Part shown: positions 33,183-37,527 of the stretch, piece after piece
Layout: each line of letters starts with the position of its first letter
Numbering within the stretch: the stretch's first letter is position 1
Assembly (NCBI GenBank): GCA_018656485.1
Contig: JABIAA010000050.1
Span: forward strand, 1-44,378
DNA: 44,378 nt
DNA from: a bacterium
GTDB lineage: Bacteria > Babelota > Babeliae > Babelales > GCA-2401785
Reading direction: 5' to 3'
Translations under genes and position numbers: made by a program
Notes under the pieces: generated by a model
Databases searched by the model: none
Told to the model about the DNA's origin: nothing
What the model saw: the letters and a program-made list of their open reading frames with translations, nothing else

Positions 33183-34199
33183 ATGAGAATAATTCTTGCA
33201 ACGGTACTTTGTTGCGCGGTTGTATTTTCGAACGTACATGCAGACATGCTCATCATGGTCACCGATCCATGCGAAAGCGAAAAATGGGACGACCTTGCGT
33301 ACGTCGCATCATACTCGTTGCATGAACCAACGATCGCTGTACACCACATCAAAAACTACGAAGTCGAAGAAACCATCGGAACTGCCATTAAAATTTTCGA
33401 CGAATTATCACAACTTGATCAAGAAGATTCAGTCCTGTTTGTTGGAGTCGGAATTGGAAATGTTTGCATCAATCTTGTTTCACACATAATCGACCGATTC
33501 AAAAATTTCTCAGTAATGCCGCGTGAATCAGACATAAGCAGGGAAGCGCCAAATACAACAGAACAAATGGCCTCTTCCCTGCAACCATTTTTTGACTGCA
33601 ATGTACAAAACGTTTGCCAACAACTTATTAAACTATTATCGCACCCTAGATTGCGAATAAATATTGATGCATATCGGGATGTGGAATACAAATGCATACA
33701 AATTGGCCCGCCCACTGCGAAGCGCGGAATCGCCCCTTGTGAAAATATTTTGTCCGAAATACTTGTTTTCGGAACACAATCTCAATATCCAGAACACCTA
33801 GAACCGTTCGGAAAATTCTACACAGGAGATCACCCAAAAATTTGGCATACACTTGTATCTTTTTACGACGAAAAAACCAAGATCGAAAAACCTGCTCCAT
33901 ATGCCATGCTTATGCACCACAAAGCGCTAATGATGGGAATGAAAGCAATAAGAAAAGAACTTATTGAACAATGCAACGCAATGATCAATCGGATAACTTT
34001 GCAAAGACCAGTCAAATCAAAAGGACATCCCGCACCCCCAACACGTGAAAAAAATCAAGAACCGGATTTGCGCGCAGCATGCATAAAACACCAAGCAAGC
34101 AAATTGCCGCGAAAAGGACTTCCGCCGCGACATCCACAGAAAAAAGAAGGAAAAAAAATGTCCTGCTTCCCATTCTGTTGGCTCTTATTTTGTTCTTGA
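33183..34199 (+). CDS. secreted alpha/beta-hydrolase-like paralog, nucleophile Ser replaced (GVGIG)
   Basis: The signal peptide is MRIILATVLCCAVVFSNVHA. It is paralogous to 34297-35367, and the promoter/5'UTR is also duplicated. The tail is polybasic and Cys-rich (KKEGKKMSCFPFCWLLFCS). Confidence 0.75.
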   Translation: MRIILATVLCCAVVFSNVHADMLIMVTDPCESEKWDDLAYVASYSLHEPTIAVHHIKNYEVEETIGTAIKIFDELSQLDQEDSVLFVGVGIGNVCINLVSHIIDRFKNFSVMPRESDISREAPNTTEQMASSLQPFFDCNVQNVCQQLIKLLSHPRLRINIDAYRDVEYKCIQIGPPTAKRGIAPCENILSEILVFGTQSQYPEHLEPFGKFYTGDHPKIWHTLVSFYDEKTKIEKPAPYAMLMHHKALMMGMKAIRKELIEQCNAMINRITLQRPVKSKGHPAPPTREKNQEPDLRAACIKHQASKLPRKGLPPRHPQKKEGKKMSCFPFCWLLFCS

Positions 34200-34296
34200 A
34201 AAAATCACGCAAAAACATTTGAACCGTTGCCTTTTTTCCGCGCCGAAAGCTATAAACCACTTGGCGGGTGAATGTTTTCTCGGGGGGGAGAAGGTC

Positions 34297-35367
34297 ATGA
34301 GGGCAATTCTATCTGCAGCAATTTTTGCAGCAATTATTTTTTCCAACGCATACGCAAACACACTTGTGATGGTTGCAGATCCAGATGAACACGAGTGGGC
34401 ACAAGCCGACGGAAAATTCGGGCGAGTAATTTCACGTCAACTTTATTCTCCAAAAACGATTCCTATTTGCCCTTTGGATAACACCTTCCAGCAAATAATT
34501 CACACCGCAGGACATTTAGTTAGAGAATTATCAAAATTACCACCAGAAGAGCCTGTCCTCATGATCGGCAACGGCTTTGGAAATGTATGCATCAACATTG
34601 CCACGTACATTATCCACATCTTAAAAAAAATAGAATCGATGAGGGCAAATGAAGCGTGGCACACAAAAGTTTCCATGCTCGAAATCATTGCAAATAAAAT
34701 CGCACCACTTTTCAAATCAAACAGCAAGGAAGCGGTTCTATTTTATATGATAAGACAATCACTCATAGACGCAACACTGCCATCTTCACTTGGCCTGTGG
34801 ACTGATCATTCTAGACCTCATATCTATCTCGATGCTTTTGAAAATCCAAACTACATATGCTACCAACTCGCCCCACCAATAAACCCTGACGGGTTGATCC
34901 CATGTGAAAGTATCGTCGACAGAACCATCGTGTTCAGCACAAACGACAAACTTCCTGATCGGCTAAACAACTTCAACCGATTTTATGACGTTACAAGTGA
35001 AAAAATACAGCAGACCCTCGTCTCATACTTCGACCAAGAAACTAAATTTTTTCGCAGCCTTCCATACTCCCTCTTAACACACCCAACCATGGCATCACGC
35101 ATCCCAGCTCTACGCAGCCAAATCAGAAGGCTTGCGCACATACAAAGAATCATAAATACAACCTTGTGCCAATATCCGCTAGCGAAGAAATGCAGGCACT
35201 CGTCTACTCCAGTCCACTCACACTTCCAGCACTACACTGCAAGCCTGGTGAAATCATGTACAATGCTGCAGGGTTTCGACGTAGACCCGAAAGAACTCAC
35301 CAAAGAGGGCCGCACAAAACAATGCCTGGAAGCAAAAAAGGTCATAAATCAGTCATTTTGCTATTAA
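34297..35367 (+). CDS. secreted alpha/beta-hydrolase-like paralog, nucleophile Ser replaced (GNGFG)
   Basis: ATG at 34297 follows GGGGGGGAGAAGG. The signal peptide is MRAILSAAIFAAIIFSNAYA. VLMIGNGFGNVCINIATYI aligns with TLIGHSHGGNLINLTTIF in the next gene. Confidence 0.75.
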   Translation: MRAILSAAIFAAIIFSNAYANTLVMVADPDEHEWAQADGKFGRVISRQLYSPKTIPICPLDNTFQQIIHTAGHLVRELSKLPPEEPVLMIGNGFGNVCINIATYIIHILKKIESMRANEAWHTKVSMLEIIANKIAPLFKSNSKEAVLFYMIRQSLIDATLPSSLGLWTDHSRPHIYLDAFENPNYICYQLAPPINPDGLIPCESIVDRTIVFSTNDKLPDRLNNFNRFYDVTSEKIQQTLVSYFDQETKFFRSLPYSLLTHPTMASRIPALRSQIRRLAHIQRIINTTLCQYPLAKKCRHSSTPVHSHFQHYTASLVKSCTMLQGFDVDPKELTKEGRTKQCLEAKKVINQSFCY

Positions 35368-35446
35368 ACGCCATCAGGATTTGCGGAAGCAAATGATCGT
35401 GTTATGCTGGCCCACAAGTTGTTTTGTCGTCCAAAGGAATTGCATA

Positions 35447-36601
35447 ATGCGACTGATTAAGTTGCTAGCCATTCTTATTTTCGTACTTGCTCCAGCAAGT
35501 TCAGAAGGGGTTGTGATCCTCGTGCATGGGACATGGTCTCGAGCACTTCCATGGTACAAACAAGGCGGGGGATTTTTTTCCGAAGTAACAACCGAAGCCG
35601 CAAAGACTGGTCAACACGTCGCATCGTTTGAATGGTCGGGGCTCAACAACCATATCGCACGCGTACGCGGAGCACGGGACCTAGCTTGTAAGATTCTCGA
35701 GTACCCGTTCAATGAGGAAGTGACTCTTATTGGACATAGCCACGGCGGAAACCTCATCAACCTCACAACAATTTTTTTGTACAACCCGCTCGCTCACATG
35801 AAAAGTGAGGAAGAACAGAAGGAATTTTTCCACGGGCTCGCAAAAAAACTTCTCAACATCTCATCTCCAATTCTTCAAAAAGCTGCAACGCCAGTCGAGC
35901 AGTTGATCGTTGATGAAATGCGCGAAGCATGCGAAACAGTCCATGAAGCATATGCAAAATTAACAGGGGAAAAAATTCAACCCAAAACAAAAAGAAACAA
36001 AACAATCAAAGCAATTACAGATGTCGCAATTGAAAAAATCGGTTCCGCTGCAGACTCTTTCGTACAAACAATCACGATGCTTTTTCCGCTCAGCAACTTG
36101 GTCATCGAACACGAACTTATGGATGCAGTCGAACGCGAAAATGCACAAAGCTCTCAAAGTGCAGAAAATTTACCTGCACCAATCCCAACAGAAGAAAAAG
36201 AAAATCCAAACTCTAACCAGACACAAAAGAAAATCAAATCCGTGTTTTTACTTGGCACCCCTGTAGACTCTCGTGACTACCACCCAGACATGAATGTCGC
36301 GCAACATGTTTTTGCACTTTATTCAAAACACGACATCATTCAACCAGTGATAGGACTTTACGACCGCGTGTATCCAGAACACGAACGAATCACAAACATG
36401 CAAGTTTTCGTAGAACAAAAAAACGGCAAGCAACAGCAGCCAGGCCATCTTGGCTTACATCGCTCGTTTATCGGCACCCACATTTTGAGCATTCCAAAGA
36501 TTATCACGGGAAAATTTGGCTCGCTGGAAAACAACCACAACTTGCAGATAAAATTTTTCGAAGGCACAGACAAAGCCCCAGAAATTACAAACCCGAACTA
36601 A
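35447..36601 (+). CDS. secreted alpha/beta hydrolase (lipase/esterase-like), catalytic motif intact
   Basis: ATG at 35447 gives MRLIKLLAILIFVLAPASSEG. It has VVILVHGTWS, FEWSG and the nucleophile elbow GHSHGG (Ser codon at 35738-35740). Candidate acid and base residues lie in SKHDIIQPV and PGHLGLH. Confidence 0.75.
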   Translation: MRLIKLLAILIFVLAPASSEGVVILVHGTWSRALPWYKQGGGFFSEVTTEAAKTGQHVASFEWSGLNNHIARVRGARDLACKILEYPFNEEVTLIGHSHGGNLINLTTIFLYNPLAHMKSEEEQKEFFHGLAKKLLNISSPILQKAATPVEQLIVDEMREACETVHEAYAKLTGEKIQPKTKRNKTIKAITDVAIEKIGSAADSFVQTITMLFPLSNLVIEHELMDAVERENAQSSQSAENLPAPIPTEEKENPNSNQTQKKIKSVFLLGTPVDSRDYHPDMNVAQHVFALYSKHDIIQPVIGLYDRVYPEHERITNMQVFVEQKNGKQQQPGHLGLHRSFIGTHILSIPKIITGKFGSLENNHNLQIKFFEGTDKAPEITNPN

Positions 36602-36681
36602 GCGGAAAAAACGACTTTCATTCCAAAAGAAAATCTTGTATAACTTTTGAAACTGCCGCACTCAGCTGCTCTGGGGAAAAC

Positions 36682-37527
36682 ATGGTTTTCATGCGCACAT
36701 TCGTGATCTTAGTCACGCTCTTGCCGGTTTATACAGGCACAAATTTAAAATCGATTGCAGTAATCACCGTGAATGACGCAATCTCCGCCGGAAATGACTG
36801 GCATATCTATCCGAAAGCACCAAAAACCAACGCGAAAAAAGAGGAAAAAACAGAAGAAGAGAGAATAGAAGAAAAAATAATGGCAGAAGAAGAGAGAATA
36901 GCAAAAGAGGAAAATATAAAAGTTGTTCCATTCCACTGGAACGGGGGGCTAATCCCAACAAAAATTGTGGATGCTGCGGGAAATCTCGCGAAGCTCATGG
37001 TGGAAACGATGATGGACAACGAAACCGTCGTTGTAACATTGCGATTTGGGGGCGTCCTCGCAAACATTGCAAGCCGCCTGATTCACGAATCGTTATTTCT
37101 CGCGGATGTACCAATCGACTTCAGAGATACCATGGCACAAGTATTCGTAGAAATTTTGACAGGAGAAGTGAAAGATTTTTTTGAACAACAGCAAAGCTCT
37201 CCCCGCATCAGCGAAACTGATACCGATATAATCCGAGGCTCTATCGCTAAAAAACTAAAAGAAACGGAATTTAACGCAACAAAAATTTTGAACAATCACG
37301 GAATCAGCAACCAACAAAAACACATTGTCGCAATGTTTCAATTCACACCACCACTTGTTGAAAATGTTTTGCTTCCATCTTCCCACGTCATCGAACAAAT
37401 ATACATTCTCGCTCCAAAGACATACGAAATCCGCTCACTGCGAGAATACCAGAGATTCTACAACACCCCACAAAAAAGCATTCATCAGCTGGATTTATTC
37501 ACACGCGCTTCAGAAAAAGCCGAATGA
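36682..37527 (+). CDS. secreted alpha/beta-hydrolase-like paralog, elbow degenerate (LRFGG)
   Basis: The hydrophobic N-terminus is MVFMRTFVILVTLLPVYTG. FHWNGG aligns with FEWSGL, and VVVTLRFGGVLANIASRLI aligns with VTLIGHSHGGNLINLTTIF. A K/E-rich insert is present. Confidence 0.7.
   Translation: MVFMRTFVILVTLLPVYTGTNLKSIAVITVNDAISAGNDWHIYPKAPKTNAKKEEKTEEERIEEKIMAEEERIAKEENIKVVPFHWNGGLIPTKIVDAAGNLAKLMVETMMDNETVVVTLRFGGVLANIASRLIHESLFLADVPIDFRDTMAQVFVEILTGEVKDFFEQQQSSPRISETDTDIIRGSIAKKLKETEFNATKILNNHGISNQQKHIVAMFQFTPPLVENVLLPSSHVIEQIYILAPKTYEIRSLREYQRFYNTPQKSIHQLDLFTRASEKAE

Follow-up and report, generated by a model that had tools for sequence, protein, structure and literature searches.

The DNA examined here, contig JABIAA010000050.1 of assembly GCA_018656485.1, is a whole chromosomal contig, 44,378 bases long, that belongs to a metagenome-assembled genome (MAG); we refer to the contig as the window. 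At 33183-37527 it carries four same-strand open reading frames (ORFs), A, B, C and D, and our analysis places all four products in one divergent family of alpha/beta hydrolases in which only C keeps the predicted catalytic center of a serine hydrolase. We propose that the locus arose by local tandem expansion, that C is an intact exported hydrolase, and that A, B and D are catalytically dead copies of which A and B have been maintained while D is decaying; to this account as a whole we assign a probability of roughly 0.78. The source, an uncultured bacterium, probably belongs to the phylum Dependentiae (TM6), judging from synteny and from its nearest relatives. The four genes are:

33183-34199, plus strand: A (HOD08_02020), predicted dead paralog of 338 residues, 31% identical to B
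34297-35367, plus strand: B (HOD08_02025), predicted dead paralog of 356 residues, 46.9 bits against a hidden Markov model (HMM) of the C family only
35447-36601, plus strand: C (HOD08_02030), predicted catalytically intact member of 384 residues, with HG, GHSHG, Asp296 and His334 kept
36682-37527, plus strand: D, predicted dead paralog of 281 residues in the window assembly, 67.1 bits against the C-family-only HMM

Homology of the four proteins

Pairwise relations among the four proteins form a chain and not a clique. By BLASTP, A matches B with an E-value of 5e-47, B matches D across 190 residues (E 9e-5), and C matches D around the nucleophile elbow (E 0.004). Profile searches in both directions join the links of this chain. 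An HMM built from A, B and D only, with no member carrying the nucleophilic serine, was run by HMMER against 1.84 billion representative proteins and returned 23 matches beyond the window's own proteins, at whole-library E-values of 1e-8 to 5e-4. All 22 of these that were inspected are C-type GHSHG hydrolases, which carry a signal peptide and the motifs HG[TS], F-x-W-S-G, GHSHG, L-G/A-T-P-V, Y-S-x-x-D and P-x-H-x-x-L-H; in many of the 22, a long helical insert resembling that of C lies past the elbow. In the opposite direction, a model of 27 C-type proteins (one of which, P0065, is itself dead) scores D at 67.1 bits, B at 46.9 bits over residues 29-277, and A at 8.0 bits, against maxima of 7.9, 4.1 and 5.0 bits, respectively, in 300 shuffles. 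Removing the signal peptides barely alters these scores.

Profile-profile alignment gives the same picture. Comparing the A+B+D profile with the C-family profile, hhalign reports a probability of 98.8% (E 9.8e-17) over 258 columns, and D by itself matches the C family at 87%; a first run with shallow profiles, A+B against nine C-type proteins, had given 26%. By these sequence comparisons A, B and D are true members of C's alpha/beta-hydrolase family, as the initial annotation had proposed for the whole tandem. For A this membership is transitive through B, because A alone reaches only the 8.0 bits above and has no BLASTP match to C.

Outside the window, close relatives of the three divergent proteins were not found. 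Searches of 5.8 billion proteins returned no homolog of A except B, and word-indexed searches with A+B and with D returned the window's own proteins only, so that A, B and D appear to lack orthologs. Pfam and NCBIfam gave no match for A, B or D, nor for U, an orphan ORF just upstream of A.

Loss of the catalytic center in A, B and D

We assigned the catalytic columns from a 30-sequence family alignment and read the codons from the window. In C, the motifs VVILVHGTWS (35510-35539), FEWSG (35627-35641) and TLIGHSHGGNLIN (35723-35761) are all present, and the serine codon lies exactly where it had been reported. The putative oxyanion motif HG (residues 27-28, 35525-35530) follows the first core strand, the elbow GHSHG spans 35732-35746, and the predicted triad consists, from N- to C-terminus, of the nucleophile Ser98 (AGC, 35738-35740), the acid Asp296 (36332-36334) and His334 (36446-36448). 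HG, Ser98, Asp296 and His334 are kept in 26-27 of the 27 C-type members. C is the conserved, syntenic copy and has a full serine-hydrolase residue set.

The same columns have changed throughout the other three proteins. Where C has HG, A has TD, B has AD and D has ND; the F-x-W-S-G column (residues 61-65) reads FEWSG in C, VHHIK in A, ICPLD in B and FHWNG in D; and the elbow column reads GHSHG in C, GVGIG in A, GNGFG in B and TLRFG in D. The nucleophile position is occupied by Gly90 in A, Gly93 in B and Arg121 (37042-37044) in D, which bears out the earlier reading that these neighbors lack the serine, and no serine, cysteine or threonine lies at or adjoining this position in any of them, so the search for an alternative nucleophile there came back empty. 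In the acid column, A has Ser200 (33780-33782) and D has Tyr248 (37423-37425), while B keeps an aspartate, Asp217 (34945-34947). The base column holds tyrosine in all three: Tyr240 in A (33900-33902), deduced from the A-B alignment, Tyr257 in B (35065-35067), backed by the HMM alignment, and a tyrosine in a long allele of D described below. Four structural residues, Trp36, Gly100, Pro272 and Pro280, are retained in A, B, C and D. Among about 155 homologs aligned to the family model, the serine is missing only in A, B, D and P0065. The alignment thus shows A, B and D to be without a serine-hydrolase catalytic center.

The initial annotation had located the neighbors' elbows by 15-nucleotide ranges. 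These correspond exactly to five-residue elbows, GVGIG in A (33444-33458), GNGFG in B (34567-34581) and LRFGG in D (37039-37053, with the alignment-defined elbow TLRFG at 37036-37050); the 13- and 14-residue strings quoted with them do not fit those ranges and lie instead at 33432-33473, 34555-34596 and 37027-37065. The motif FHWNGG, said to be kept in D, is present at 36931-36948.

P0065, the one further family member without the serine, is a Dependentiae protein whose gene (locus L083, 466-1389; MAG GCA_030600445.1) adjoins kdsA and nusB. It has GHGHG for GHSHG and tyrosine for the catalytic histidine, keeps HG, and has none of the other derived residues of A, B and D. From its sequence, P0065 looks like an independent loss of activity through the same Ser-to-Gly and His-to-Tyr substitutions. 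The contig that carries it is only 3.1 kb long, and a second, intact copy may be present elsewhere in GCA_030600445.1.

Predicted fold

We modeled C with its own family alignment and B (AlphaFold) with a 30-sequence alignment that includes the C family. The C model has a mean predicted local distance difference test score (pLDDT) of 80.4, with 90-98 in the core and a poorly defined insert of 150 residues; its elbow comprises a strand (92-97), a turn and a helix (99-111) at a pLDDT of about 97. The B model has a mean pLDDT of 75.4, a predicted template modeling score (pTM) of 0.76 and a pLDDT of 92-95 in the elbow region, where a strand (87-92) and turn lead into a helix (94-113); its tail past about residue 295 is predicted to be disordered. 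The order of elements is identical in the two models: strand, helix, strand, helix and strand-turn-helix elbow, with a helical insert, three strands, a helix and a strand after the elbow.

Foldseek searches of the PDB with the two models returned overlapping sets of structures. All 50 matches listed for B are alpha/beta-fold proteins (thioesterases, hydroxynitrile lyases, KAI2 and lipases), with a best E-value of 8e-4, probabilities up to 0.99 and template modeling scores (TM-scores) of 0.19-0.43. Nearly all of the 50 matches listed for C are alpha/beta hydrolases, including family I lipases, Bacillus subtilis LipA, monoglyceride lipase and hydroxynitrile lyases; here the best E-value is 9.7e-4, probabilities reach 1.0, TM-scores are 0.17-0.38, and superposition is good over about 100 residues only. 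Entries 1tah, 1cvl, 1ex9, 2es4_B, 1e89 and 1dwo appear in both lists. A superposable fold had been named by the initial annotation as the point to check, and the B model is recognized as an alpha/beta hydrolase with a C-like order of elements. We regard the comparison of the B and C models as consistent with a shared fold rather than decisive.

No member of the C family was found among solved structures; the closest sequence match to the family profile is 6tj2, an extracellular alpha/beta hydrolase (E 5e-5). Matches to Pfam models across 30 scanned family members are weak and scattered: Abhydrolase_6 in 13, DUF676 in six, DUF726 in five, Tle3, Mbeg1-like and DUF900 in four each, and PGAP1 in two.

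A local expansion within a conserved neighborhood

The four genes sit inside a gene neighborhood that recurs in related genomes. In the window, its other components are:

30642-31076, plus strand: ndk1, left anchor of the ndk–hydrolase–nusB–efp neighborhood (Pfam NDK, E 3.6e-50)
31283-31759, plus strand: ndk2, inside the expanded interval (Pfam NDK, E 2e-52, residues 26-157)
31817-33025, plus strand: U, a 402-residue orphan with a signal peptide, between ndk2 and A
33136-33177, plus strand: non-coding element upstream of A, 86% identical to 34248-34289
34248-34289, plus strand: non-coding element upstream of B, partner of 33136-33177
37525-37788, plus strand: polymorphic stop codon of D and an 87-codon open frame, which overlaps the 3' end of nusB by 41 nucleotides (nt)
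37748-38617, minus strand: nusB, right anchor, convergent with D (Pfam NusB, E 1.2e-25)
38580-39137, minus strand: efp, right anchor (Pfam EFP domains)

The order ndk (+), one family gene (+), sometimes kdsA, nusB (-) and efp (-) occurs in at least 23 fetched Dependentiae loci, and the single-gene ndk–nusB–efp arrangement is also present in loci L001 and L083. C-type proteins are common in genomes labeled Dependentiae, TM6, Babeliales or Chromulinivoraceae, and the window's efp is 54-65% identical to the efp that adjoins a family gene in about 30 loci. In the window the anchors are those of these relatives, with ndk at 30642-31076 and nusB and efp at 37748-39137, and the ndk-to-nusB interval, expanded to 6.7 kb, holds ndk2, U, A, B, C and D. 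The single hydrolase gene of this interval has been amplified in place to four tandem copies. The flanks of the window contain housekeeping genes (ftsA, ftsZ and rpsA), with which the base composition of the four genes agrees, and this argues for local expansion and against an imported island. The earlier proposal that one enzyme had spawned dead paralogs gains support from the reciprocal profile searches, from the mapping of the triad, and from the single-gene synteny elsewhere.

We searched for dead paralogs beside the family gene in 80 loci of other genomes, by tblastn and HMM, and only the family gene itself matched. A tandem expansion of another kind occurs in the alphaproteobacterium Parvularcula mediterranea (locus L041, 5815-10150), in which the N-terminal half of the family (HG, WSG, AHSHG) recurs in three adjacent genes; the serine is kept in all three, so this trio has expanded without loss of the nucleophile.

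Ancestry and probable maintenance of the dead copies

A, B and D share the derived states G28 to D, N102 to V, L268 to Q, T271 to P and His to Tyr, and neighbor-joining trees group A with B in 100 of 100 bootstraps and A and B with D in 94 of 100. On the shared states and the tree grouping, we consider descent of all three from a single, already inactive ancestor to be strongly supported at the sequence level. The simplest history would comprise one loss of activity, a duplication into D and the ancestor of A and B, and then the duplication that separated A from B. That the dead lineage descends from this genome's own C we infer from position, not from phylogeny.

To the question of whether A and B have been kept by selection, a simulation of neutral decay speaks directly. 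Two copies were allowed to diverge by nucleotide substitution alone, with insertions and deletions (indels) left out, until their products were 34% identical; over 300 runs the simulated copies acquired about eight stop codons each, and not one pair stayed open. A and B, at 31% identity, contain no stop codon and no frameshift. From this difference we infer that selection has preserved intact products of A and B ever since the two genes diverged. Both carry glycine at the nucleophile position, so this selection acted when activity had already been lost. Another assembly of the population (L084, ENA ERZ4200974) is 99.855% identical to the window and shows no difference in A or B.

Conservation between A and B extends to the DNA upstream of them. 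The roughly 80 nt before their start codons reach 81% identity, compared with 48% for the coding regions, and the core of this element (33136-33177 and 34248-34289) is 86% identical over 42 nt. It contains TATAAACCACTTGG and a run of seven G residues ahead of the start codon, and is probably, to judge from its position and conservation, a shared promoter or leader. A pattern scan found no further copy in the window, and the element has no Rfam match.

Of the eight positions at which L084 departs from the window, five are clustered in 33 bases (35884-35916) of the helical insert of C; three of the five changes are synonymous and two are not. Either a short tract of recombination or mixed strains in the assembly could explain this cluster.

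D presents another situation. Its stop codon (37525-37527) is TGA in the window and GGG in L084 (4664-4666), and the JGI protein P0048 has tryptophan there; the long form, an ORF of 368 residues in L084, compares with 281 residues in the window. The 87-codon extension prolongs the family alignment through the histidine loop, adds 7.7 bits to the score, and contains a remnant of that loop, QNPEYAEL against the family's Q-P-g-H-s-e-l, with tyrosine in place of histidine. The window allele of D is a nonsense truncation that cuts off the last 87 residues, and the long form, with tyrosine at the histidine position, is probably ancestral by this alignment. Reading of TGA as a sense codon, a candidate explanation for the long D calls, was discarded: ftsA, efp, yfiH and A end in TGA at their expected lengths. 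With its stop codon polymorphic in the population, the C-terminal part of D seems to be dispensable, and D appears to be decaying.

Predicted export signals and other features of the four proteins

All four proteins had been annotated with signal peptides, a claim that seems to stand for three of them. By a simple rule (charged N-terminus, hydrophobic core, AXA-type site), A, B and C have signal peptides of classical appearance, with predicted cleavage after residues 20, 20 and 19, respectively. D has the hydrophobic core and no good cleavage site before its first strand, and its N-terminus may act as a signal anchor.

Beyond the shared core, each protein has features of its own. The helical insert of C, modeled with low confidence, covers approximately residues 110-260 (35774-36226). 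A and B both end in basic, proline-rich tails that are predicted to be disordered and finish in a conserved Phe-Cys, with the tail of A leading into a Cys-rich hydrophobic stretch; these new tails may add a targeting or anchoring function. D contains a Lys/Glu-rich insertion (EEKTEEERIEEKIMAEEERIAKEE) at 36836-36906, encoded by a 15-nt periodic repeat and located between the conserved tryptophan and FHWNGG, which is missing in the rest of the family.

Possible functions and alternative explanations

We propose that C is exported through Sec and works as an alpha/beta-fold serine hydrolase, most likely an esterase, lipase or phospholipase, as suggested by its lipase-like elbow, its family's weak matches to lipase-like Pfam models, and its structural neighbors. 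Catalytically dead paralogs usually come to bind either the substrate of their ancestor or a partner, and A and B most likely act as exported non-catalytic proteins in which the old fold would serve as a scaffold for binding, with a lipid, some other small ligand, or a protein of the host or envelope as the target; alternatively, they might be partners of C. Binding of what the ancestor hydrolyzed, or of a partner, is therefore the kind of role we would look for, and any specific assignment within this range is tentative and would more often prove wrong than right. An unlikely extension of this idea is that the core role of the whole family does not depend on catalysis, and that the dead copies are exported binding modules, partners or regulators of C, or decoys aimed at the host or the envelope. 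We leave a non-catalytic core role open because P0065, a single-copy gene at the conserved locus, made the same two changes independently, and because A and B have been preserved for a long time with a shared regulatory element and a new basic tail ending in cysteine.

The most direct challenge to a proposal in which A and B are maintained is that A, B and D are functionless pseudogenes that merely happen to be open. Such a reading would account for the absence of orthologs in our searches, for branches that are very long relative to C, for the disappearance of the catalytic residues (all gone, apart from Asp217 in B), and for the nonsense polymorphism that removes 87 residues of D. For A and B it founders on the simulation, in which about eight stops per copy are expected at 34% identity, none of the 300 pairs stays open, and indels would only worsen the odds. 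It also leaves unexplained why signal peptides, core strands, the two invariant prolines and the tryptophan are all retained, why A and B share a conserved upstream element, and why no single-nucleotide polymorphism (SNP) separates the two assemblies in either gene. We consider it quite improbable for the three genes together. Confined to D, the same reading is plausible, though we would not bet on it.

Two other alternatives concern what A, B and D are rather than whether they are kept. They might still be enzymes that work through other residues: certain Cys, His, Asp and Glu residues are conserved between A and B although the family as a whole can do without them, B retains the acid Asp217, and candidate nucleophiles can be named in the cysteine that A and B share five residues past the elbow and in a PCE motif. 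Set against this, the elbow apex is Gly, Gly and Arg, and the oxyanion HG and the histidine have been lost as well. The shared cysteine falls in a column that is valine in 23 of 27 members, which points to a buried site on the elbow helix; the cysteine of PCE is found in active members too (PCM in P0002, P0006 and P0055); and neither Pfam nor NCBIfam matched another enzyme family. We give this possibility very little credence. That A and B resemble a hydrolase by chance, through a glycine-rich strand-turn-helix of Rossmann-like GxGxG type in some other fold, was suggested by the empty BLASTP comparison of A with C, by the 26% of the first shallow hhalign run, and by the likeness of GxGxG to nucleotide-binding loops. 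The family alignment, however, spans about 250 residues and not a single motif, the profile made from dead copies only retrieves nothing but the C-type hydrolase family from 1.84 billion proteins, and the pattern is GxGxG rather than the dinucleotide-binding GxGxxG, with no nucleotide-binding match in Pfam. The profile searches led us to reject the Rossmann-type reading, which is now scarcely credible.

Our proposal of local expansion with loss of activity has its own weak points. A has no match to C by plain BLASTP, and its own link to the family profile is weak at 8.0 bits. The Abhydrolase_6 match of C scores 24.3 bits, under the cut-off of 26.3. Foldseek TM-scores are 0.2-0.4, with root-mean-square deviations (rmsd) above 10 Å in long alignments, and the B model leans on an alignment dominated by the C family and is therefore not separate from the sequence homology. 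In the neighbor-joining tree no bootstrap replicate (0 of 100) makes A, B and D the sister group of C, the tree gives no firm attachment point for the long-branched dead clade, and the grouping of A, B and D could be due in part to long-branch attraction. The cleavage site of D is doubtful, the localization of all four proteins was judged by a simple sequence rule, and the assignment to Dependentiae comes from synteny and nearest relatives rather than from a marker-gene phylogeny.

Other features of the window

The genes to the left of A include a second tandem duplication. ndk1 and ndk2 are 71-75% identical at the nucleotide level; ndk1 ends in a Cys-rich tail, CLSCGCCCE, and ndk2 has an N-terminal extension of 23 residues that resembles a cleavable signal peptide (hydrophobic, with an AYA|K site), so that the nucleoside diphosphate kinase encoded by ndk2 may be exported. 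The two genes are separated by a strong terminator-like hairpin (31097-31132), and a terminator scan found a GC-rich terminator-like hairpin after U (33047-33067). U was considered as a fifth, more diverged copy of the hydrolase and set aside: the family HMM has no match in it. To the right, nusB has an acidic, repetitive N-terminal extension of about 135 residues (variants of ...AELAELN...ALKEAAELAEL...), with the NusB domain at residues 143-267.

Two further regions of the window contain runs of ORFs whose products may be exported. A minus-strand block at 12064-21320 consists of nine orphan ORFs in a row, 265-363 residues long, for which Pfam gave no match; the block has a lower GC content (0.385-0.41) and a strong negative GC skew, and those of its N-termini that were inspected resemble signal peptides. 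Eight of the nine ORFs fall into three tandem paralog groups:

13171-16381, minus strand: three genes, 31-37% identity
16399-18303, minus strand: two genes, 36% identity
18339-21320, minus strand: three genes, 36-54% identity

From these sequences it looks as if exported orphans have undergone a second and more extensive round of tandem expansion on the contig. At 40243-43683 on the plus strand lie five consecutive small ORFs (182-223 residues), all with an N-terminus that resembles a signal peptide; they have no detectable similarity to one another, and the first of them (40243-40803) has no Pfam match.

Comparison with known systems

Dependentiae live as obligate parasites of protists and have been encountered almost exclusively in metagenomes, and most of their exported proteins are orphans without an assignable origin. 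Here, three exported orphans are traced to a defined enzyme family and a defined locus, and a history can be pieced together that leads from loss of activity through duplication and divergence under selection to the start of decay in one copy. The locus offers a concrete example of how the orphan secretome of Dependentiae may arise, and it marks out an exported hydrolase family, as yet uncharacterized, that is conserved and syntenic across the phylum. C and its inactive relatives also form a natural pairing of enzyme and non-enzyme for biochemical study. Our literature search found no description of the C family in Dependentiae. Work on Chromulinavorax reported signal peptides in 44% of genes, a set enriched in orphans, and the picture in the window fits this observation.

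Among characterized enzymes, the best matches to the C model are family I lipases (Pseudomonas aeruginosa LipA, 1ex9; Burkholderia glumae, 1tah/1cvl) and Bacillus subtilis LipA (1i6w), and family I lipases also appear in the match list of B. C and the family I lipases share an HG oxyanion motif, a G-H-S-x-G-G elbow and export, and across 92 columns the identity to 1ex9 is 25%. Good superposition is confined to roughly the first 100 residues (rmsd 3.5-5 Å, with marginal E-values of 1e-3 to 1e-2), whereas the C-terminal half and the long helical insert differ. Pfam scans of the neighboring genes (ndk, the orphan, the paralogs and nusB) found no lipase-specific foldase near C, and with no full-length similarity and no foldase neighbor we rejected the assignment of C to family I.1 or I.2. 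No single model among Abhydrolase_6, DUF676, DUF726, DUF900, PGAP1-like, Tle3 and Mbeg1-like captures the C family, and A, B and D match none of them. A type VI Tle effector was likewise rejected: weak Tle3 matches occur in four of 30 members and in none of A-D, and the flanking genes are housekeeping genes that provide no type VI secretion context.

Non-catalytic paralogs of alpha/beta hydrolases are already well known. In eukaryotic proteins such as neuroligins, NDRG proteins and the gibberellin receptor GID1, the hydrolase fold has been re-used as a binding or receptor module after at least one triad residue was lost; these proteins are unrelated to A, B and D in sequence and context, and the parallel is one of analogy only. 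Against this background the locus is a clear and well-resolved example, from a phylum about which little is known, of pseudoenzymes that arose through tandem duplication, and it introduces no new mechanism. A nearer parallel is MPT51 (FbpC1) of Mycobacterium tuberculosis, a protein that probably acts by binding. MPT51 stands beside the antigen 85 mycolyltransferases (2004, J Mol Biol 335:519, as cited in PMC8875947). The likeness to the window lies in an exported alpha/beta-hydrolase family of an intracellular pathogen, in which active paralogs are accompanied by a secreted dead one that keeps the fold. MPT51 has no detectable sequence relationship to the window family and is an analog rather than a relative, and the arrangement also differs: in the window, three dead copies stand in tandem with the active one and are restricted to a single population.

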